In this document: piece after piece, positions 7,488 to 17,461 of the stretch
Numbering within the stretch: position 1 is the first letter of the stretch
Layout: every line of letters starts with the position of its first letter
Origin: a virus
DNA: 64,000 nucleotides
Strand: one strand, 5' to 3'
Virus record (IMG/VR): IMGVR_UViG_3300044858_003398
Translations under genes and position numbers: made by a program
Notes under the pieces: model-generated
What the model saw: the letters and a program-made list of their open reading frames with translations, nothing else
Told to the model about the DNA's origin: nothing
The model's database searches: none

Positions 7488-7864
7488 AACGGCGGCAATT
7501 CGTCCGGTGGACCGATCACTACGTCCTTTGGGACGTAGATATCCTTATCAATCATAGAGAAAAGGACCCTATTTGGGTCGGCTGAAGCCGGAGACAAAAT
7601 CTTCGGCTTTTTCTTTTTGGTCTTTGACTTTTTAGGCTTAGTTTTCGGGGACGCGGCCCAGTCGGCGAACTTGTTGACAAGTTCAGTGACGGCCTTAGCC
7701 GTCCCATATCTGCTATAAAGTACTGCAAAGCACTCCCCATGGAGTTCCTCATTATTGAGCCCCTCAGGTCGGTAAGCCCACAGGAGGCCTGCCAAGATAT
7801 TGTCTGACAGGTTATCAATAGCTTTGCCCTTGTGTTTACCACACGGTATGCGATAGGAGGTCAT
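7484..7864 (-). CDS. hypothetical protein with P(F/C)GKHKG motif (DUF3820-like) and basic tail
   Basis: IPCGKHKGKAI; Lys-rich linker; PPF end; ATG overlaps the upstream stop. Confidence 0.5.
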   Translation of the reverse strand: MTSYRIPCGKHKGKAIDNLSDNILAGLLWAYRPEGLNNEELHGECFAVLYSRYGTAKAVTELVNKFADWAASPKTKPKKSKTKKKKPKILSPASADPNRVLFSMIDKDIYVPKDVVIGPPDELPPF

Positions 7865-8292
7865 AATCTCGCTCTGTTTCTCATATTCGTAGATGACTCT
7901 ACTTTTGGCAAATCTAGAAAGACCTGATCGATCCCCAACTCCTGACACACCAATGACTCATTAGAATTCTGGTTGGCTGGATTTCTATCTCCACTATTGA
8001 AAAAAATGATCTGGTTGCCGCCAGACCTAGAGTGGATGAGCCGGAGGCTCTCACAAACACTTGAATCAGTATCAATGGACAATACTACTTCATCGATCCA
8101 CCTAATTGATTCTGCAATTTCTACTCTAGCTAATTCTCCCAATATGGGGACATTACCCTTCAGACGAACCTGAGCATCGTTGTTTACTATAAAAATGAGC
8201 CTATCACATAACCAAGATGCAGCTTTAACATACTGACAATGACCATGATGAATCGGATTTAGATGGCCTGAGGCCACTCCGTATCTAAACAT
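7861..8292 (-). CDS. cytidylyl/adenylyltransferase (HxGH; TagD/RfaE-II-like)
   Basis: SGHLNPIHHGH, VNND, GDR, ESST. Confidence 0.85.
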   Translation of the reverse strand: MFRYGVASGHLNPIHHGHCQYVKAASWLCDRLIFIVNNDAQVRLKGNVPILGELARVEIAESIRWIDEVVLSIDTDSSVCESLRLIHSRSGGNQIIFFNSGDRNPANQNSNESLVCQELGIDQVFLDLPKVESSTNMRNRARL

Positions 8293-8641
8293 GAATACCT
8301 ACCAGCCCTGTATTGCGGACTAGATTGACGGCTATCGCCGTCTGAAGCCCGCTCGGTTTGATATCATTGATCAATACTCTTGGCCCCACAGGAAGCCCCA
8401 TAACGAGTTGATCCCAGAATAGGCCATAAGACGCCAATTGATCCTCTGTAACTCTCCTACAGCCCTCTGGGCGAGCCGTGGTGAGGATGATGTAATAGTC
8501 CTTGGCTCTCCACTCGCAGAACTTCTCTTGAACACCCGGTAAAAGAGATGGGCGTTCTGTCATCATGTGGGGCAGATCAATCAAATGCTCCCATAAGACG
8601 CCATCGATATCTGAGAATATAGTGTGTCTTAATTCCCTCAT
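8285..8641 (-). CDS. small HAD-family phosphatase (capsule-biosynthesis type)
   Basis: DIDGV motif I, TTAR, RVLINDIKP. Confidence 0.8.
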   Translation of the reverse strand: MRELRHTIFSDIDGVLWEHLIDLPHMMTERPSLLPGVQEKFCEWRAKDYYIILTTARPEGCRRVTEDQLASYGLFWDQLVMGLPVGPRVLINDIKPSGLQTAIAVNLVRNTGLVGIHV

Positions 8642-9585
8642 AGTATTTCTGTCCCCACTTTTGAAATCCCCACATCCACAAATCTGGCCTTGTATTTCTC
8701 TTTGATTCGATCCTTAGTGTCCTCTTCCATGATACCAAAGATGAAGCCAGATCCACCAGCACCTAGAAGCTTTCCGCCGATCATACCATCACTTCTGAGA
8801 TCGTCATATATCCTATCGACTTCTGGGCTGGTAATTAGAGGAGATATTTCCTTTTTAGATCTCCAAGAATCATGTAGTAACATAGCTACGAGATCGAGGT
8901 CCTGATCGCAAAAAGCCCTCAAAGCCAGTTTTGCAGTAGAGTGGATCATGCTCTTATCTTTACCGTCATGTGATTTGGCTATCTCGTATGATTTACGAGA
9001 CTTCCCAGTGTAGATGAGAATACTCCTATCCATCATCTTTGACACGAATTCTTCGCTGACAGGGAGCGGGCGAACCTCAAAATCTCCGTGCTTAAATATA
9101 TGAATTGAATTCAGTCCACCATACGCGGCAGCTATAGCATCTTGACAACCTCCTGCCTCCTTTAAGAGAATTCTTTCGATATAGGTGGCCTCATTAGCTA
9201 ACTCTTTCTTGCTCCTAACATCGCCCCTCATCTGATGAATTGCGTTTAGTAGTCCAACAGTAAAAGAGGAAGACGATCCTATACCTGTCTGAGCGGGTAG
9301 ATCGCACATATACGAAATTTCCATTCCGTACTTTATTCCTAAGAACTCCAAGACTCCTCTTACTGCATTATTCTGTATCTGTGAATTGTCCTGTACTGTC
9401 TCAGTTATTGAGTAGGAAACTTTAGTCTCATAGTCCAATATTTCTGGAGTCCTTCTGACGGCAGAATAAGCGTACTTGTCGAGGCCAAAATAAATAAGGA
9501 GGGCTCCATGATCCTTGTAGTATGACAAGTAATCAGTGGACCCTCCGAACAGAGACACTCTAAAGTTGGTTTTAGAGATAATCAT
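8638..9585 (-). CDS. GHMP sugar kinase, HddA-like (heptose-7-phosphate kinase)
   Basis: RVSLFGGSTD, DLPAQTGIGSSSSF, GCQD..AAAYGG, GKLLGAGGSGF. Confidence 0.85.
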   Translation of the reverse strand: MIISKTNFRVSLFGGSTDYLSYYKDHGALLIYFGLDKYAYSAVRRTPEILDYETKVSYSITETVQDNSQIQNNAVRGVLEFLGIKYGMEISYMCDLPAQTGIGSSSSFTVGLLNAIHQMRGDVRSKKELANEATYIERILLKEAGGCQDAIAAAYGGLNSIHIFKHGDFEVRPLPVSEEFVSKMMDRSILIYTGKSRKSYEIAKSHDGKDKSMIHSTAKLALRAFCDQDLDLVAMLLHDSWRSKKEISPLITSPEVDRIYDDLRSDGMIGGKLLGAGGSGFIFGIMEEDTKDRIKEKYKARFVDVGISKVGTEIL

Positions 9586-10508
9586 CAGTAATTTTTACAA
9601 AGTGGCCGATCTTCTTCACTAAGCGTCTTATAGAGATCCATCATCTCTTTGATACCATATTCTAAAGATCGTGTACACCTGTACCCTAGATTGTATAATT
9701 TTTGACTACTGACCTCGTAATCTCTTTTATCTGGGTCAGTCCTGTCATCTACTATAGACCAAGTAGCCCCAGTCACTGCACATATCTTTTTTACCAGTTC
9801 TTCCTTGGTCATATTGATTGAATCATTGCCGAGGTTGTAAATTTCGCCAGCCATATCTCCAATGCGAGACAGCGGCATCTCAAGAGCTGAAACAATATCA
9901 TCAATATGAATGTAGTTTCTACGGAAATGCCCATCAAATACTTCAATATGAGATTTCCCAGCCAAATTATTGACCAGTAAATCTAATCTAGGCCTCAAAG
10001 ACGCCCCGAATACGGTGGCCAATCTGAAACAAACAGATCTGCGATAGGAGTGAATGTGGGCTTCGCCTTCCATCTTGGTCTTGGCATAAAGAGATAGAGG
10101 GTTCATGGGAGTTTCTTCAGTACAAACCCCCGGATTGCTCCCATATGCAGAATTTGAATTACAGTAAACCACTATCTGATTGGTTAGGTGATTAACCAGA
10201 TGGTTCTGCCATTCTGAGTTTAGAAGTCGCGTAATGTCGGGGTCCTGATCGCACAAAGGAGCACCAACTAAAGCGGCTAATGGGTAGACCGCGTCGGCCC
10301 TGTCAATACAATCCTTGAGGTTGCTTGACCAAAAGAGGACATCTTCATTGAAGAAGTGGCACTTCGGGTGCTTGAACAACTGGCTGACGAATTTCTCTTG
10401 CTTGAAGAAGAAATTATCAAAGCAGTATAGCTCATGCCCATAGTTGAGCAATCGTTCTGTCAATTTTGAGCCAATATAGCCTGCGGCTCCAGTAACAACA
10501 ATCTTCAT
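9585..10508 (-). CDS. NAD-dependent epimerase/dehydratase (extended SDR)
   Basis: TGAAGYIG, YAKTK, RLATVFG..RPRLDLLVN. Confidence 0.9.
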   Translation of the reverse strand: MKIVVTGAAGYIGSKLTERLLNYGHELYCFDNFFFKQEKFVSQLFKHPKCHFFNEDVLFWSSNLKDCIDRADAVYPLAALVGAPLCDQDPDITRLLNSEWQNHLVNHLTNQIVVYCNSNSAYGSNPGVCTEETPMNPLSLYAKTKMEGEAHIHSYRRSVCFRLATVFGASLRPRLDLLVNNLAGKSHIEVFDGHFRRNYIHIDDIVSALEMPLSRIGDMAGEIYNLGNDSINMTKEELVKKICAVTGATWSIVDDRTDPDKRDYEVSSQKLYNLGYRCTRSLEYGIKEMMDLYKTLSEEDRPLCKNY

Positions 10509-10509
10509 G

Positions 10510-10896
10510 CTAATCGCCCTTCACAATTCTGTATGAGTCCGAGTCTTCATGATGCGTTGAAAATTCAATGAAAGCACATGGGTTCCAATTCGACCCAGAC
10601 GTAAATCTATGAGCCATCCTAAGCCCTAGATCGAAAGACTGACCGCAATTGAGATTCACTGTCTGTTTGAGCTTCTCGAACAAGGATGGATCAGCCTTGA
10701 TCTCGTCTAGATGCATCGCCGAAGCATACTCCAGCTTAAGCACCCCATACGTTACGTAAAATGTCTCTTCCTTCAATTCATGATAGTGCATTGAGCAGTA
10801 CTTGGATGGTAATACTGTCAACTGCTTCCCGCAATATTTCTCGTGGTTCACGATCCACAACTCATGACCCCACCCCTTGGAGACGACATTAATCAT
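10510..10896 (-). CDS. cupin sugar isomerase-like protein
   Basis: KGWGHELWIVN..YCGK, SMHYH..KEETFYV, EFSTHH.DSDSYR. Confidence 0.8.
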   Translation of the reverse strand: MINVVSKGWGHELWIVNHEKYCGKQLTVLPSKYCSMHYHELKEETFYVTYGVLKLEYASAMHLDEIKADPSLFEKLKQTVNLNCGQSFDLGLRMAHRFTSGSNWNPCAFIEFSTHHEDSDSYRIVKGD

Positions 10897-12028
10897 TAAA
10901 GAACCCCCATAGAACCATTTTGATTCTGACCAAATCTTCCTCAGTAATGAATCTATGACATCCGATATGGATACCATTGTCGCCACACCAATCAGCATTA
11001 GGGAAATACCGATCGTCTCCAAAGCCCTTCATAGCAGGATGATGTCCGCAGAAGCCAAAGTTTCTCTTCCAGTGGATCTGGTTTTCATCGAAGGCATCTT
11101 TGAGTCTGTGAATACGTAATTTCGATTTCTCTTCACCCTTCAAGGTGATACTAAACCCATGCGGCATAGTCTCTACCCCTTCAGGCTCCGAGCTGAACCA
11201 TGCTAGATCTTTCCAGATCTCGGTGTATTCAACTAGCTCTCTCCAGATCTTCTTTCTGGCGGCAATGTTCTCATGAAACTGCTCCGCACCCTCCAGTCCT
11301 ACCGAGGCACAAAGATCAGTCATTTTGAAATTGCTGCCAAATCTGATATGGTCAAAGTAGGCAGAATTATTTGGCCTACCATGAGATCTGATGCTGACAA
11401 TCAGATCTCTAAGGTCTTCATCGTCGGTATACAGGAGCGACCCCTCGCCCGCCACGACCATATGGGCGGTAAAAAGAGAGCTACAACCTCCAATTGCCCT
11501 CTTATGGGAAAACTCCCCATTTATTTTACTGCCGTAGTTCTCACACGCATCCTCGAATAAGATCAGATCATGCTTGTCGGCAATAGCCTTTAGCTTATCC
11601 ATATTAGCGGGAAGCCCCATAGTTCCAATGGCATAAATTGCAACTACATCATCATCAATCGCTTCCTCTACTAGGTCCTCATTGATATTCAAAGTCTCTG
11701 GGCGAATATCGACCCACTTAGGAAGCAATCCACCAGAAACGATTGCAGAGCTGTTTGCAATGAATCCAAGTGCTGGGCAGATCACTTTACTTTTACCGCG
11801 TCTCACGGTTCTAGGAGCTATCTCCGGCAACGCAAGAGTCATAGCCGTCAGAGCTGCAGTCCCACTCGATAGGGCAACAGCATACTTAGTGCCCATAAGC
11901 TTGGCGAATTCCTGCTCAAGCAAGGCCACCTTAGGACCCATACTGATCCAATTCGTGTCCAAGCAATCCTGAATGTGTCTACGTGCCGTAGCCCCAATTT
12001 CGAGATGGCCAAATTCAATCTTTTTCAT
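10889..12028 (-). CDS. DegT/DnrJ-fold PLP enzyme with His at the catalytic Lys position (ColD/RfbH-type 3-dehydratase)
   Basis: SSGTAAL, FEDACE, SSLFTAHMVVAGEG (His189), SHGR, NFKMTD. Confidence 0.8.
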   Translation of the reverse strand: MKKIEFGHLEIGATARRHIQDCLDTNWISMGPKVALLEQEFAKLMGTKYAVALSSGTAALTAMTLALPEIAPRTVRRGKSKVICPALGFIANSSAIVSGGLLPKWVDIRPETLNINEDLVEEAIDDDVVAIYAIGTMGLPANMDKLKAIADKHDLILFEDACENYGSKINGEFSHKRAIGGCSSLFTAHMVVAGEGSLLYTDDEDLRDLIVSIRSHGRPNNSAYFDHIRFGSNFKMTDLCASVGLEGAEQFHENIAARKKIWRELVEYTEIWKDLAWFSSEPEGVETMPHGFSITLKGEEKSKLRIHRLKDAFDENQIHWKRNFGFCGHHPAMKGFGDDRYFPNADWCGDNGIHIGCHRFITEEDLVRIKMVLWGFFND

Positions 12029-12914
12029 AATATGTCCTGATAAAGCTGCAAATTTCTTGTGCGTTTGGCGGGAGATTGTCTTTAGACTTGGAGAATCCAG
12101 CAGTTCTGTCGTCTAGACCCATACTATAGACTATGGAACCAGACGCTGCCGACAATTTATGAGCTATGGTTGAGGCTACTCCATCGGAGTAATCATCGTC
12201 CAAAACTAAGCCAGAATTGCATATCAGTGAGTCAATCCAGCGATCTTCGATCACATACGGTTTTAGATTCACTTGATGATATACGGCGACCTTGCATCCT
12301 TCCAGAAGCATCATTCTAGAAGCTTCCATAGCTGCGAAACGGGTGATGGAAATAGGGAAGAGGACAAAGTCTGGATCGTCGAAATGAATATCGTTCAGGT
12401 CTTCAGTTTGGCCATAGGACCCCCTATGCTCCGAGATATAGGTTGGGTCTCCCGACCTCATGAAGTCGGAGTATACTTTTCGATACTCAGACGGACTCAT
12501 AGGAGATACAATCTTGATCCCCGGCATCCTGTGACAGAGAGAGTGATGCGAACTCCCAGCCACAGGCCCTATTGATCCCTCCATGGCGATAGCCCTGATC
12601 ATAATGGGACATTTCATATCCCAAATTTCTTTGGCCTTACAAGCGTAATTAAGGATATGCACTAGGTTGTACCAGCCGAACCCCTGATAGCGGATAGTGT
12701 AGCAAACTCTCTTGCCGCCAATGGCTAGGCCGGTAACCACACCACCATTACTGAGATCCGAAGTTGGGAGTTCCAATATGCCGACATCATCAGGAGTTTC
12801 CGGGATAGTTCCACCAATTCGACCAACTGCCAATATGTTCTGAGCGGCTATAATTCCACCACGCTCTACGAAATCGAAAAGGCATGAATTGATTACATCT
12901 TTTACTGTTTCCAT
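12015..12914 (-). CDS. TPP-dependent E1 beta / transketolase C-terminal-like subunit
   Basis: ELPTSD, GLAIGG, GPVAGSSH, PGIKIVSPMSP, SEHR. Confidence 0.8.
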   Translation of the reverse strand: METVKDVINSCLFDFVERGGIIAAQNILAVGRIGGTIPETPDDVGILELPTSDLSNGGVVTGLAIGGKRVCYTIRYQGFGWYNLVHILNYACKAKEIWDMKCPIMIRAIAMEGSIGPVAGSSHHSLCHRMPGIKIVSPMSPSEYRKVYSDFMRSGDPTYISEHRGSYGQTEDLNDIHFDDPDFVLFPISITRFAAMEASRMMLLEGCKVAVYHQVNLKPYVIEDRWIDSLICNSGLVLDDDYSDGVASTIAHKLSAASGSIVYSMGLDDRTAGFSKSKDNLPPNAQEICSFIRTYYEKD

Positions 12915-13717
12915 AGGTCAGCTACCTCCTGCTCAATTCTAGTCTGCTCAGACTTCGGTAAAAAGAGAAGCATGTCCTTCAGTGTGTCCCACAAGGGAGG
13001 CCCGTCCGTTCCCGCTCCTGCGTGCCATAGGTGTCTGCAGCACTCTATATCTAGGAGGCATGGCCTATCTGAATCTAAGAACTCACATAGGATTCCAGAT
13101 AAGCTTTCGAACCTGTCTGATACTGATTCATTCTTAAGGCCGAATCCTTTGGCGACATCCCACGTAGACCAGCTTCTTCTTACGCTAGTCTCTGTAAGGA
13201 TTGATAGCCCGTTATTCTCGACCAAGAACATGATGTTAAGTTTGTGGGTGGCAGCATAGCCTAAAGCTGCTAGGACGTCATCCTCTTCACAAGCAGCATC
13301 TCCTAAGATACAAATCACCTTCTTGCCGGTCGCCTGAGCATATCCGCAAGCGATAGAAGCCTGAGAGCCTAGGTGGCCATTATGGCCAATCATTTTGTTC
13401 TTGATATGTAGACTTGCCGAGCCCCACATACCCTTACCGCAGCCAGTGTCTAGGCCGCACAATTCATCTCTCAGAGACGCCATCGCGGCTTCCTTATCCT
13501 CGCTGAAGGTCAAAAAGTATGAGTGACATCTATGTTGCGGGAAAACGACATAATCCTTAACTCCTGCTTCATACAGACTGTTCTTGAGTACTACAGGAAT
13601 ATGCTCTGTTCCAACTGATAGATAGATTGGAGGCCTAGCCAAACCAGACCTGAGTGCTTTAGCTACTTCTAGTTCAAAGCATCTATTCTCATAAGCCTCA
13701 TGAACGATTTTTCTCAT
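12902..13717 (-). CDS. TPP-dependent E1 alpha-like subunit
   Basis: YLSVGTE, QHRCH, GDAACEE...VENN TPP-binding motif. Confidence 0.8.
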   Translation of the reverse strand: MRKIVHEAYENRCFELEVAKALRSGLARPPIYLSVGTEHIPVVLKNSLYEAGVKDYVVFPQHRCHSYFLTFSEDKEAAMASLRDELCGLDTGCGKGMWGSASLHIKNKMIGHNGHLGSQASIACGYAQATGKKVICILGDAACEEDDVLAALGYAATHKLNIMFLVENNGLSILTETSVRRSWSTWDVAKGFGLKNESVSDRFESLSGILCEFLDSDRPCLLDIECCRHLWHAGAGTDGPPLWDTLKDMLLFLPKSEQTRIEQEVADLWKQ

Positions 13718-14315
13718 TAACAACATAAATTGCCTCAGTTTCAAGGGTCTCGAACTTCGTAGAGAGCATAGCGAAAGTGTCTCCTGATACTATGTCTCCG
13801 GGAGCACAAACTAGCGAGCCACCACTTCTAATGCCGCCAGTTAGAATCAAATAATTGCCCTTTCTTATCTGCGATCCCATATTCACCTTTTCAATCTTTA
13901 CATCGCAATAATAGCCCTTGTTGTCCTCCCAAGGACATTTGATATCGACTAAATAGTCGTCCTCATCAGTATACACAGTTCCACGGTCATACTTATCATC
14001 AATCCTAACTAGGTCAGATTTATCTACCGGGGACTCAATCTCATAAAGGTGAAGAGTACTAGATGTCATATTCATAGTGCGATGAAATACTCCCTCTCTA
14101 ATCATAACCTTCTCCCCAGCAAACAACTTCTCCCCGCCAGATAAGAAGCATACTTTCGCCCCTCCCTGAAGGACGATTAGGCCAGTTTTTTTGTTGGGGT
14201 GGCAATGCAGAGAAGTCTCGGCCCATGGGTCTATAAGAAGATGCCAGATAGCTACATTGTCATTTTCGTAGGCTAGGAATTCACATCCCCAAGGTTTTCT
14301 CTTAGCGATTTTCAC
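13698..14315 (-). CDS. cupin domain protein
   Basis: KPWGCE, TSLHCHPNKKT, FH, EIESP..K.DLVRIDDKY. Confidence 0.8.
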   Translation of the reverse strand: MKIAKRKPWGCEFLAYENDNVAIWHLLIDPWAETSLHCHPNKKTGLIVLQGGAKVCFLSGGEKLFAGEKVMIREGVFHRTMNMTSSTLHLYEIESPVDKSDLVRIDDKYDRGTVYTDEDDYLVDIKCPWEDNKGYYCDVKIEKVNMGSQIRKGNYLILTGGIRSGGSLVCAPGDIVSGDTFAMLSTKFETLETEAIYVVNEKNRS

Positions 14316-14857
14316 GTCTTATCCCCGTGGGCTGCGGCCATCTTCAGTCCCTCTCTCATCCATTCACCCATAAAGTCATAGTGGGGGCACGAAACTAGGT
14401 TGCCGTCAATCACTACAGGAGAGCGACTATAGGTGGCACCAGCGTTCTGAATGTCTGGTTCAATTGAGTAATATCCAGAACAGGTCCTGCCTCGAATGAC
14501 ATCGGCGGTAATAAGAAGCTGAGCCCCGTTACAAATAGACATAGTGGGCTTATTTCTATCGAACCAAGCCCTCACAAAACCTACTGCATTCTTCTCAAGT
14601 CTCAGTTTTTCCAGAGCCTTAACTCCTCCGGGTATAACCAATAAATCAAAGTCTTCAGTCCTATATCCACGGTGCGGCAGTAAAAGATCATCAACATGGA
14701 TATCTGAAACTAAGTGAACCCCTAAGCTACCAAATACTCTCTCCTCTCGCTTATTAGCTGCAAGCGTGACCGAATAACCAGCTTGTTGTAGGGCGTAATA
14801 AGGAAACACGGTCTCGTGGTCCTGAAATTTTTCCCAAGTAAGAATGAGTGCCTTCAT
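14312..14857 (-). CDS. DJ-1/PfpI family protein
   Basis: FQDHE, IPGG, ICNG nucleophile elbow, VVIDGNLVS. Confidence 0.85.
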   Translation of the reverse strand: MKALILTWEKFQDHETVFPYYALQQAGYSVTLAANKREERVFGSLGVHLVSDIHVDDLLLPHRGYRTEDFDLLVIPGGVKALEKLRLEKNAVGFVRAWFDRNKPTMSICNGAQLLITADVIRGRTCSGYYSIEPDIQNAGATYSRSPVVIDGNLVSCPHYDFMGEWMREGLKMAAAHGDKT

Positions 14858-14858
14858 T

Positions 14859-16343
14859 TTAATCCTTTAGTAGCTTACGCTTCAACTTAATCTTTGTCAT
14901 TTCTTTGATATTGCTCACAGCTACTTCGCCATAAGCCTCGCCCATTCTCTTTAGTACTGATTCATTCGTGAAATACCGATGGAAGAAATCATCCCTGAAC
15001 CTAAGAACATCTGATGCGGACAGGTACTTAGTGCAATCCGGCACATGATTATAGCTCAGGAAGCCAAATTCAGAGTACTCTTCTGGAACTCTTCTGCCCT
15101 CATTCTTAGCCTGAAGATATAGCGGACTCCCCGGAAGTGCGGTAGCACAGTAAATGTTCATATTGGCGAGAGGTAGATCTACTGCAAGTTGATATGACTC
15201 CTCCATTGAATCGAAATCGTCGGTTGGAAGACCAACTATGAAATTTCCGCCAACCCCAATCCCGTGATCATCTATGCTCTTCACGATATCTCTGATATTA
15301 ACTTCCTTAAATCTCCCCTTATCAATCTCCTGCCTTACCGTCTGCGAAGCAGACTCAATTCCTAGAGCTAGATGATTAACACCAGCCTTCTTCAAAGTCT
15401 CAAGGTATTGAGGCTTCGCCGTATCTACTCGACTATAGGCCCAGATATTAAACTTTAAACCTCTCTCTATGATTAACTCACATAGAGTCATGAAATGCTT
15501 GGGGCGGTATACAAACATTTCGTCAGCAATTTTGAGATTGGTCACACCTTGGCTAGACAAATATTCTAGCTGCTTTATTGTGTATTCTGGGGACCAGTAG
15601 CGAAAAATATTGAATGAGTCTGCCGTCTTAGTAAAATCTATTGATGTTCTATTAATAGAATTAATCATGCAGAAACTACACTTGCTATAACAACCTAAGC
15701 TAGTATAAATACTAGCGAATGGGCTTGTGTTACCTTTAAAGTTGGTGTGCCAAGTACTTGTTCTATAATTATCTAGAGATGGCATCAGATCATACGCCAC
15801 TCCGGGCATATCAAATTCCATCAGGTTCTGAGGAACGATCCCCTCAGCCATATTCATCTTGATGGCGTCGTCGCGATACACAATTCCTTTTACAGAACTA
15901 AGAGCCTCAATAGAAGTACCACGCTCAACTATATTCCTGAGGGCATAAACCCCCTCATTCATAAAGGTGATATCTATAAAATCATGCTTCTGCAATACTT
16001 CGATAGGAAGAGCGTTGACGTGCGGACCAATGAATGCTATCTTACAAAGTCCCCTAATACACTCTGCCGCTTTGGTCGCCCCATGCATCGCAGAGGAGGA
16101 AGCATTTGGATTGCTACCAGTAGCCACGAAGAGGACCAAGTCTGGCGAGATACTTTCAACATCAGAGTAAAATTCAGCAGCAGTAGGTCTATTAACTTCC
16201 ATATCGTATATGGATACATCGCATTTACTCCTAACAGAATTAGCTAAAAGACCGGCCCATAGATTAGGCTCTTTAGCGGAGAGGTCCTTGCTTAAATCCT
16301 GATACAAATCAGCAGAACTAGGAGCGACAATTAATAGCTTCAT
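14859..16343 (-). CDS. cobalamin-binding radical SAM protein
   Basis: N-terminal B12-binding domain (GPH, EG), CYSKCSFC, ADE, LGIES, GLP. Confidence 0.9.
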   Translation of the reverse strand: MKLLIVAPSSADLYQDLSKDLSAKEPNLWAGLLANSVRSKCDVSIYDMEVNRPTAAEFYSDVESISPDLVLFVATGSNPNASSSAMHGATKAAECIRGLCKIAFIGPHVNALPIEVLQKHDFIDITFMNEGVYALRNIVERGTSIEALSSVKGIVYRDDAIKMNMAEGIVPQNLMEFDMPGVAYDLMPSLDNYRTSTWHTNFKGNTSPFASIYTSLGCYSKCSFCMINSINRTSIDFTKTADSFNIFRYWSPEYTIKQLEYLSSQGVTNLKIADEMFVYRPKHFMTLCELIIERGLKFNIWAYSRVDTAKPQYLETLKKAGVNHLALGIESASQTVRQEIDKGRFKEVNIRDIVKSIDDHGIGVGGNFIVGLPTDDFDSMEESYQLAVDLPLANMNIYCATALPGSPLYLQAKNEGRRVPEEYSEFGFLSYNHVPDCTKYLSASDVLRFRDDFFHRYFTNESVLKRMGEAYGEVAVSNIKEMTKIKLKRKLLKD

Positions 16344-16995
16344 TTATTTTCTCAATATCTCTTTTGAGTTGTTGATCTGAATAGATATTATAGTGGGCGT
16401 GGTTCTCTTTAATCTCGCAAACTGAATCATAGATCTCAACTGGAATGTCCACTAATCTGTTTTCGCAAGCGGAAGCAAAGATCCTAGCGAACATAATATC
16501 TGCTCCGGGTCCAGATATCTGCGGAGGCATAAAATACCCAAGAGTGTCAAAAACTTCTCTAGTTAAAATGGGATAGCAGGCATATTTGTATTTGAGCGAC
16601 TCTTCCCAAGGCTCCTTTACATTCGGCCAAGGCCAAACCTCTTGTCCTCTCCCGTAGGCAATCCTATCTGGTTTATCATTCAAAAAGGACTCTATTGTGT
16701 TACTAATGACATCGTCAAAATTCGGAGTCCTAATTTCTGCGTCATCATTTAGCCCCATGATGTAGTCGCCACATGTTTTATACGCTATAGGATTCAGTAA
16801 AGAAGAATGCCTATTTACATTCCTCTCACGTCCGAAAGTGAAGCACCCCAATTCTTCTGCTACAGACTTGGTCTCTTGATCATCAAGATCATACCCCACC
16901 CATAGCTCTACTTTACTGGAATTTTTCTGAACACTTTCAATAGCGTTCCTGAGCAATGTAGGTCGGTTTCGACTCACAATTATAACTGAAAGCAT
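16318..16995 (-). CDS. glycosyltransferase family 2
   Basis: LSVIIVSRNRP start, NDD motif. Confidence 0.75.
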   Translation of the reverse strand: MLSVIIVSRNRPTLLRNAIESVQKNSSKVELWVGYDLDDQETKSVAEELGCFTFGRERNVNRHSSLLNPIAYKTCGDYIMGLNDDAEIRTPNFDDVISNTIESFLNDKPDRIAYGRGQEVWPWPNVKEPWEESLKYKYACYPILTREVFDTLGYFMPPQISGPGADIMFARIFASACENRLVDIPVEIYDSVCEIKENHAHYNIYSDQQLKRDIEKINEAINCRS

Positions 16996-17461
16996 CTTTA
17001 AATTTTCTAGAGACTTCGTCTCTTTCTGAAAGGATAGCCGGTATAGGAGCCCAGTTAGCCCCAATCGTCTCGTCGTTATAGCGGACAGAATACTGACTAC
17101 TTAAATCATATGGAGCGTCCCATTTGTAATGCAAGACACACTCGCTAGATAAGCACTGATGGGCGTTCAGATGCCTAGGAGGAATGAGAATGGAAATATG
17201 TTCCTCTCTATTAGCTGACAGCAAAAACTCTTCTTTAATCCCATTGTCAATATCATAAACAACCAACTTAAAGGTGCCCCATAAACAACTTATTAACTTC
17301 CATGTATGATCATCTCCGTGGAACCCCCTTATTACTCCCAACTTGGACACTGATACTTTATCCAAGATAAAATTATTAGAATGGTAGCTACAATCAAAAA
17401 TCGTGTAGAGGCTACCTCTCTCGTCAGAGAACTTAGAGTATTTCGACACTGACGCGGTCAT
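16937..17461 (-). CDS. rmlC: dTDP-4-dehydrorhamnose 3,5-epimerase-like (RmlC)
   Basis: DERG, GVIRGFH, LIPP..NAH, HYK, ILSERD. Confidence 0.85.
   Translation of the reverse strand: MTASVSKYSKFSDERGSLYTIFDCSYHSNNFILDKVSVSKLGVIRGFHGDDHTWKLISCLWGTFKLVVYDIDNGIKEEFLLSANREEHISILIPPRHLNAHQCLSSECVLHYKWDAPYDLSSQYSVRYNDETIGANWAPIPAILSERDEVSRKFKDAFSYNCESKPTYIAQERY

Follow-up and report, generated by a model that had tools for sequence, protein, structure and literature searches.

Carbon-branched deoxysugars are rare. The enzymes known to install the branch are either of the YerE type, found in a few lipopolysaccharide pathways, or of the E1 type, found in the synthesis of actinomycete antibiotics. Two-carbon branches are added to keto-sugars either by E1-type pairs (AviB1/B2, Pau11/12, KbDH, and the aldgamycin enzymes) or by YerE-like enzymes (PMC4425429, PMC4753412, PMC12247030). 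The substrate of YerE and ErwE is the product of a 3-dehydratase, CDP-3,6-dideoxy-4-keto-glucose (PMC12247030, PMC4425429). In addition, Cj1427 combined in vitro with the C3-dehydratase of Campylobacter jejuni HS:5 yields GDP-D-glycero-3-deoxy-4-keto-heptose (PMC10680097). Viral orthologues are still unexplored, according to a 2025 review (PMC12247030). Here, we describe a sugar operon in a stretch of 64,000 nucleotides (the window) from a lake phage record of IMG/VR, IMGVR_UViG_3300044858_003398 (123,595 bases; 79% complete by CheckV), in which a DegT-fold enzyme with a catalytic histidine is encoded next to a thiamine-dependent E1-like alpha/beta pair. With a probability that we put at about 0.5 to 0.55, this pair would branch a 3-deoxy-4-keto heptose at C4.

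The DegT-fold enzyme falls in the clade of histidine-type C3-dehydratases

The operon occupies the minus strand from approximately 21.7 kb down to 7.5 kb of the window and comprises about 20 overlapping genes. The genes for the DegT-fold protein (10889-12028), E1-beta (12015-12914), and E1-alpha (12902-13744) are real minus-strand open reading frames (ORFs), whose adjacent stops and starts overlap by 13 to 14 bases. The DegT-fold protein has 379 amino acids (Pfam DegT_DnrJ_EryC1, PF01041, 209 bits, residues 13 to 369) and is encoded by the single DegT gene of the 123,595-base record. In the database, the protein is listed from Met30 onward (P0001, 350 amino acids); homologues align from residue 1 to 3, so that the gene caller probably placed the start too far downstream.

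The protein contains SSLFTAHMVVAGEG, and its His189 (codon CAT, 11462-11464) lies opposite the Schiff-base lysine of perosamine synthetase (PDB 3bn1) in a HMMER alignment. The same residue is placed opposite His188 of ColD, whether ColD is represented by PDB 2gms or by the gene from E. coli O55:H7 (NC_013941.1, 2553701-2554867, L283:4702-5868), which adjoins a gene of the GDP-L-fucose synthase family, and opposite the first histidine of the "HH" pair of RfbH (reference L018:2317-3657, which scores 710 bits where the cut-off is 423). The H188K variant of ColD is reported to gain aminotransferase activity. In a search of 5.8 billion proteins, all of the 120 best homologues carry Ala-His at the catalytic site, as do all 126 readable DegT copies beside independently seeded E1-beta genes, a regularity that chance would not produce. 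The first-pass annotation of this DNA had read a histidine in place of the catalytic lysine, and the alignment with ColD, RfbH, and DegT proteins agrees: His, not Lys, occupies the site.

Overall similarity places the protein at about equal distance from several relatives, with PDB matches to perosamine synthetase (1e-34), ColD (4e-34), and the E1 dehydrase (2e-31) and bit scores of 234 for the Lys-type GDP-sugar aminotransferase 7b0m, 211 for perosamine synthetase, and 210 for ColD. RfbH carries its four Fe-S cysteines (C255, C257, C265, and C267) in an insert for which ColD and 39 of 41 family members, the window protein included, show a gap, and the RfbH model matches the window protein in two pieces, skipping positions 253 to 286. 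This bears out the earlier observation that a cysteine cluster is missing. The best NCBIfam match is the E1/RfbH type (NF011936), at 152 bits against a cut-off of 423; on this score and the absent C-X-C-X7-C-X-C insert, an E1-type Fe-S dehydrase was rejected.

The phylogenies comprise 41 distinct members of the family and 73 DegT proteins of the Lys type, the latter taken from related loci, together with ColD, RfbH, ArnB, and WecE. In the FastTree analysis (118 sequences), all histidine proteins form one clade (0.992), within which the family (0.99) is sister to ColD plus RfbH (0.985). An IQ-TREE analysis (LG+G4; 27 sequences below 50% identity) likewise recovers the histidine clade (98.1/99), ColD plus RfbH (98.9/100), and the family (87.6/94). 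The window enzyme thus represents a third deep lineage of the dehydratase clade, which we designate by its "A-H" motif and which is orthologous to neither characterized type. Its position in the 3-dehydratase clade together with the lack of the Fe-S motif makes it ColD-like, as first proposed, and by homology the enzyme is predicted to be a pyridoxamine 5'-phosphate (PMP)-dependent C3-dehydratase acting on a nucleoside diphosphate (NDP)-4-keto sugar, probably a heptose.

With ColD (WbdK of E. coli O55; GDP-4-keto-6-deoxy-D-mannose 3-dehydratase) and the C. jejuni HS:5 heptose C3-dehydratase, the window enzyme shares the DegT fold, the position of the histidine, membership in the all-histidine clade, and the absence of an Fe-S cluster. 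The mechanism, in which PMP is regenerated from glutamate and the C3 hydroxyl is lost from a 4-keto sugar, is expected to be common to ColD and the window enzyme. However, the two proteins are only about 29% identical and belong to sister lineages, and the window enzyme has Ala rather than Ser before the histidine and a shorter loop after the "HG" motif. Its predicted substrate retains O6, its partner dehydrogenase is of the C4-dehydrogenase rather than the 4,6-dehydratase type, and no 4,6-dehydratase is found in the record; the partners of ColD are GMD and ColC. The E1/RfbH/DdhC enzyme (CDP-6-deoxy-L-threo-D-glycero-4-hexulose 3-dehydrase) shares the histidine and the clade but differs by its four-cysteine insert. 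Its E3 reductase partner has no counterpart among the annotated genes of the operon, in which no search was aimed at an E3 reductase.

Automated annotation does not capture this distinction. As anticipated in the first-pass annotation, JGI names the homologues "dTDP-4-amino-4,6-dideoxygalactose transaminase." The RefSeq/PGAP label of the structurally characterized ColD of E. coli O55:H7 is only "DegT/DnrJ/EryC1/StrS family aminotransferase," so that known histidine-type dehydratases are likewise left unnamed by the RefSeq pipeline.

The thiamine enzyme is a compact E1-type pair that occurs in two forms

The E1-beta-like subunit has 299 amino acids and combines a Pyr domain (Pfam Transket_pyr, 30.7 bits) with a degenerate transketolase-C-like domain; it aligns to full-length E1-beta into the C-terminal domain. 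The E1-alpha-like subunit, with the PP domain (Pfam E1_dh, 67 bits), has 274 to 280 amino acids, depending on its start. The longest ORF starts at a TTG (13744), but the ATG at 13726, which has GAGG upstream and N-terminal alignment support, is the likely start. The gene called earlier is real, and the start assigned to it, 13717, is the next ATG after the likelier one. The diphosphate-Mg motif of alpha, GDAA...(27)...ENNG, which corresponds to the GDG-X(24-27)-NN pattern of E1-type thiamine enzymes, spans residues 148 to 179 in longest-ORF numbering (13208-13303).

The nearest solved relatives of both subunits are pyruvate dehydrogenase (PDH) E1 proteins, at E values of 1e-10 for alpha and 1e-5 for beta. 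The NCBIfam scores lie far under the PDH cut-offs (70 versus 394 bits for alpha, 33 versus 321 bits for beta), alpha falls some 90 residues short of PDH E1-alpha in length, and it also matches DXS and transketolase weakly. Profile searches of the 123,595-base, 79% complete record gave no match for E2 (PF00198) or the lipoyl domain (PF00364). For E3, which the first-pass annotation also took to be absent, no separate search was made. These results support the initial reading that the pair is not a PDH and has no E2 beside it.

Clustering of 44 non-redundant loci seeded from the histidine enzyme revealed two forms of the pair. In the short form, exemplified by the pair at L088:6804-7968, alpha has about 205 and beta about 175 amino acids, beta carries a PVAEE motif, and the genes lie directly upstream of the histidine enzyme or of the gene for a B12-binding radical S-adenosylmethionine (SAM) enzyme (14859-16343, minus strand, in the window). 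In the long form, to which the window pair belongs, alpha has 263 to 294 and beta 299 to 309 amino acids, the latter with the degenerate transketolase-C-like tail. The GD...NN motif is kept in both forms, and every readable member of either form has an acidic residue at the position that activates the cofactor. This residue is glutamate in 66 of 66 short-form copies. In the long form it is aspartate in 68 of 68 readable phage copies and in 47 of 53 parsable representatives, with glutamate retained in the deeper branches. The window beta subunit has Asp53 (codon GAT, 12756-12758) at this site, where E1-beta and transketolase enzymes have the glutamate that activates thiamine diphosphate. To our knowledge, such a replacement is unprecedented in E1 enzymes.

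The long family comprises 342 clusters (E value of at most 1e-3) among 1.84 billion representatives. Two of the representatives, the metagenome proteins P0130 and P0148 (619 to 628 amino acids), are single-chain alpha-beta fusions of the long pair, which proves alpha and beta to be partner subunits.

A two-subunit E1-like pair without E2 or E3 in a deoxysugar cluster, with the proposed role of transferring a pyruvate-derived unit to the ketone of a sugar, is also the arrangement of AviB1/AviB2, Pau11/Pau12, KbDH-alpha/beta, and the aldgamycin enzymes (PMC4425429, PMC12247030). Those pairs are full length (Pau11, 325 amino acids; Pau12, 345 amino acids) and come from actinomycete antibiotic clusters, whereas the window pair is shorter and lies in a phage glycan operon. 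As compared by description rather than by sequence, the window pair further differs in its aspartate and in its coupling to a DJ-1 protein and a cupin. YerE, ErwE, and JanthE follow the same logic, in that a thiamine enzyme installs the branch at C4 of the sugar released by a 3-dehydratase. However, these YerE-like lyases belong to another thiamine superfamily, the single-chain decarboxylase type, of which the window has no gene.

The pair travels with the dehydratase family

Starting from the histidine enzyme, E1-beta was found in 34 of the 44 loci and E1-alpha in 33; the exceptions are mostly truncated contigs or loci of DPANN archaea and Saccharibacteria. Relatives of the short beta occur in at least 564 viral stretches and those of the long beta in 95. 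Linkage was counted in E1-beta-seeded loci with at least 18 kb of context, 36 short and 43 long. A DegT-family gene accompanies the pair in 75 of these 79 loci (34/36 short, 41/43 long), and the DegT copies across all E1-beta-seeded loci comprise 126 with His, none with Lys, and 14 that are unreadable. The thiamine enzyme is thus a near-obligate partner of the histidine dehydratase family. Well over a hundred contigs of uncultured phages, from lake and marine sources, have the two side by side, and the partnership is also present in Omnitrophota, in Planctomycetes, and in one Nanoarchaeota locus.

In the window, the E1-alpha gene is followed upstream by genes for a cupin of the type II phosphomannose isomerase (PMI) C-terminal type (205 amino acids; Pfam MannoseP_isomer; 13698-14315, minus strand) and a DJ-1/PfpI protein (181 amino acids; Pfam 126 bits; 14312-14857, minus strand). 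Each of the two, the cupin at about 200 amino acids, occurs in 42 of the 43 long-form loci. Together with the long pair they form a fixed four-gene module; the two genes are never seen with the short pair. In the protein atlas, the relatives of this larger cupin are only viral "PMI C-terminal" clusters. DJ-1 and cupin families act on alpha-hydroxy or oxo carbonyl groups, the product type of carboligases.

The two forms are mostly mutually exclusive, yet both are present in L104 (IMGVR_UViG_3300014059_000970) and in about 7% of long-form loci. In L104, the long module (DJ-1, cupin, alpha, and beta) and a short pair stand in one cluster. The functions of the two forms may thus overlap only in part.

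Conversely, three loci from DPANN archaea and Saccharibacteria (L005 to L007) have the histidine enzyme and the activation module without the thiamine enzyme. The DPANN loci L005 and L006 also carry a fused nucleotidyltransferase-GHMP kinase, inositol-monophosphatase-family genes, and a D-2-hydroxyacid dehydrogenase.

A replacement of the pair was found in L032, a contig labeled as a single-cell assembly of Prochlorococcus sp. AG-409-P03 that carries phage-like genes (RecA/UvsX-like, DUF932, and dCMP deaminase). This contig has the histidine enzyme, the radical SAM enzyme, an RmlC-type gene, and shared unknown genes, but no E1 pair. In the pair's place (L032:3929-6646) stands a PanB gene (337 bits, cut-off 272) beside that of a 631-amino-acid single-chain thiamine enzyme. 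The best solved relatives of the latter are JanthE (8rph, 340 bits) and 5ahk (261 bits), with true acetolactate synthases reaching at most 223 bits. JanthE is a YerE-like, ketone-accepting lyase (PMC12188165), and ErwE, the erwiniose enzyme, takes 4-hydroxy-2-oxo acids as donors (PMC12247030). The PanB-type hydroxymethyltransferase could supply an ErwE-like 4-hydroxy-2-oxo donor in L032. The comparison with YerE made in the first-pass annotation is apt as regards this swap and the shared pathway logic, although E1-type pairs of the alpha-KADH2 kind are the fitter comparators for the window enzyme.

Matches among genome contigs came from an alignment-based scan; a scan with a single protein gave none. 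Cultured-phage GenBank entries gave no match in a nucleotide search and only distant DegT genes (<30% identity) in a protein search, and the family is absent from these isolates. A literature search for a link between phage E1 and DegT genes returned nothing relevant.

Flanking genes point to a heptose rather than a 3,6-dideoxyhexose

The record encodes only one short-chain dehydrogenase/reductase (SDR; 9585-10508, minus strand), which accompanies the histidine enzyme in 40 of the 44 loci. It carries the motifs NSNSAYG and YAKTK and has neither the T-D/S-E triad nor the Asp/Glu pair of 4,6-dehydratases, and a 4,6-dehydratase role was rejected because this acid/base dyad is absent. Its closest match is PDB 6vo6 (205 bits, E value of 1e-59; next match, 73 bits), an entry titled only "putative sugar-nucleotide epimerase/dehydratase" and which we take to be Cj1427, a GDP-heptose C4-dehydrogenase. 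The SDR is therefore predicted to be an NDP-heptose C4-dehydrogenase that provides the 4-keto substrate.

The other sugar genes point to a heptose as well. The RmlC-fold protein (16937-17461, minus strand; PDB 8db5, E value of 1.5e-19) has as best solved relatives the GDP-D-glycero-4-keto-D-lyxo-heptose 3,5- and 3-epimerases, above dTDP-rhamnose epimerases. An activation module (7861-9585, minus strand; profile matches) consists of a GHMP kinase closest to HddA (8638-9585), a small HAD phosphatase (8285-8641), and an HxGH nucleotidyltransferase closest to the adenylyltransferase domain of HldE (7861-8292). In other related phages, a PfkB (PfkB/HldE-like) kinase replaces the GHMP kinase. A small cupin is encoded between the SDR and the histidine enzyme (10510-10896, minus strand), and in four related phages a GmhA-like SIS gene stands in its place. 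The small cupin may thus isomerize a heptose phosphate as a non-orthologous stand-in. Among solved proteins it is related only to L-ribose and D-lyxose isomerases, with weak matches (E value of 1e-3); the corresponding position is also noted at L085:11137-11643.

An SDR of the C4-dehydrogenase type without the dehydratase dyad, together with a heptose-type epimerase, leads us to expect a 3-deoxy-4-C-branched heptose and not a 3,6-dideoxyhexose, and the product likely keeps O6. The 3,6-dideoxy sugar named in the first-pass annotation is thus not borne out, given the single SDR without the dehydratase triad, its proximity to 6vo6, and the flanking set of heptose activation and epimerization genes. 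Several relatives carry an extra SDR with STDEVYG or STSEVYG, and these could make the 3,6-dideoxy form. The C. jejuni GDP-heptose set (Cj1427 and Cj1430-type epimerases) provides the best solved relatives of the window SDR and RmlC-fold protein, and the window appears to encode a natural counterpart of the Campylobacter enzyme mixture. It differs from the C. jejuni set in having no C4 reductase and in its mixed activation by a GHMP kinase and an HxGH transferase.

A proposed route to a branched heptose and its alternatives

The proposed route would start from a heptose phosphate, supplied by the host or by the small cupin acting as an isomerase, which the GHMP kinase, the HAD phosphatase, and the HxGH nucleotidyltransferase would convert to an NDP-heptose. 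The single SDR would then oxidize C4 while O6 is retained. On homology with characterized dehydratases, the His189 enzyme would take PMP from glutamate, form a ketimine at C4, and, with His189 as the base, expel the C3 hydroxyl. Hydrolysis would then yield ammonia along with NDP-3-deoxy-4-keto-heptose, and the enzyme, like ColD, would work without an Fe-S cluster or a reductase. From its context, the pair would act as a lipoyl-independent carboligase that decarboxylates a 2-oxo acid, probably pyruvate. Attack of the resulting thiamine-bound acyl anion on the ketone at C4 would then create the carbon branch and leave a tertiary alcohol. The DJ-1 protein and the larger cupin probably make the donor ready or modify the acyloin branch, and the finished sugar would pass to the glycosyltransferases of the operon.

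Branching at C4 is the best-supported role for the pair, in view of the pairing of dehydratase and thiamine enzyme, the YerE-type swap in L032, the missing C4 reductase, and the absent E2. It would explain how the phage dispenses with a C4 ketoreductase, and with only one SDR and one DegT protein in the record, the 4-ketone has no obvious other fate. The earlier proposal of a C-branched deoxysugar accordingly survives in kind, as a dehydratase plus a branching enzyme instead of an aminotransferase plus a PDH, with the change that a heptose with its O6 in place is the expected sugar.

Several points weigh against C4 branching of a heptose. All functional assignments in both families are predictions from sequence and context. 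In the comparison by description, the pair is very far from the characterized branching enzymes, and the aspartate in place of the activating glutamate could mean altered chemistry. Because the histidine family occurs without the thiamine enzyme in L005 to L007, branching is not intrinsic to the dehydratase. The record is only 79% complete, a 4,6-dehydratase or a reductase could come from the host, and the SDR could itself re-reduce C4. Moreover, GDP, ADP, and CDP are all candidates for the nucleotide carrier, and the PDB title of 6vo6 does not itself name Cj1427.

An unlikely alternative is that the pair acts upstream, in the manner of transketolase or DXS, and joins a two-carbon unit from a 2-oxo acid to a sugar-phosphate aldehyde to give a higher ketose phosphate. 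One or both cupins would then isomerize the ketose to an aldose, and the kinase, phosphatase, and nucleotidyltransferase would activate it, as in lincosamide octose synthesis; the histidine enzyme would keep its 3-dehydratase role, and the C4 ketone would be reduced again by the SDR. Two cupins of the aldose-ketose-isomerase type do flank the genes, one of them the type II PMI protein so regularly found with the long form, the activation module implies a bisphosphate route, alpha has its weak DXS and transketolase matches, and an SDR that retains its NADH would make a C4 reductase superfluous. However, the pair tracks the histidine dehydratase (75/79 loci) more than the kinases, since GHMP or PfkB genes occur in at most 21 of 36 short-form and at most 38 of 43 long-form loci, if none carries both. 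The short form has no cupin partner, L005 to L007 have the activation module and the histidine enzyme but no thiamine enzyme, and the pair persists in phages that have GmhA, an enzyme whose substrate is ordinary sedoheptulose 7-phosphate. In L032, moreover, the replacement belongs to the ketone-branching YerE/JanthE lineage.

The doubt may also be placed on the histidine enzyme, which could carry out a PMP-dependent elimination elsewhere on the sugar or a slow transamination to a 4-amino sugar, with the pair acting on another intermediate. The enzyme is indeed of a separate deep lineage with Ala instead of Ser before the histidine, and it matches the Lys-type aminotransferases 7b0m and perosamine synthetase as well as it matches ColD. 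The radical SAM enzyme also often accompanies the histidine enzyme, in 28 of 44 loci, among them genomes of Omnitrophota and Planctomycetes. Within NCBIfam it comes closest to HpnJ, at 118 bits and far under the cut-off, and it may rearrange or C-methylate the sugar. Such chemistry nevertheless strikes us as improbable, given the invariant histidine, an all-histidine clade that is monophyletic with both characterized dehydratase types, a partner SDR of the kind that makes 4-keto sugars, and the heptose precedent in vitro (PMC10680097). Hardest to credit is the reading of the pair as a true dehydrogenase E1 for a 2-oxo acid, pyruvate or acetoin, borne as an auxiliary metabolic gene (AMG), using the E2 and E3 of the host, and lying beside the histidine enzyme by coincidence. 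The top Pfam, NCBIfam, and PDB matches are to PDH E1 alpha and beta, and a host E2 could conceivably be used. Against it stand the absence of E2 and lipoyl genes from the record, the low scores, the shortened alpha, the aspartate, the overlap with sugar genes, the presence of a histidine dehydratase in 95% of loci, and a long family as small as the one found.

Other genes of the operon

A phosphonate pathway (phosphoenolpyruvate [PEP] mutase, decarboxylase, and aminotransferase) was considered and rejected; the record has no PEP mutase, and the pair is of the E1 type, not the Ppd type. At the upstream end of the operon, a small Mpo1-like (DUF962) membrane protein is encoded (21366-21686, minus strand; 9 of 44 loci). 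It recurs in the sugar clusters of several related loci, where it has no obvious role in sugar chemistry.

Implications for phage glycan synthesis

The locus presents a known pathway logic in a new, widespread, and unannotated phage form. What is new is that the partnership of dehydratase and thiamine enzyme is common in uncultured lake and marine phages, and that it suggests a concrete route to 3-deoxy-4-keto-heptose, a sugar obtained to date solely in vitro from a mixture of Campylobacter enzymes. The finding also corrects a systematic misannotation, in which the labels "aminotransferase" and "pyruvate dehydrogenase AMG" would skew what is concluded about metabolism from viromes. If the pair does branch the sugar, it would provide compact new carboligases for tertiary alcohol synthesis.

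A broader picture, which we put forward tentatively and at odds short of even, is that aquatic phages have a new route to a 3-deoxy-4-C-branched heptose, built on a third lineage of histidine dehydratases and two miniaturized E1-type carboligases. The short form (about 205 plus 175 amino acids) would be the smallest known E1, and the long form the first with aspartate activation, with DJ-1 and the cupin building a more elaborate branch. The resulting sugar would serve as a phage-specified decoration of the surface or virion that is new to glycan chemistry.

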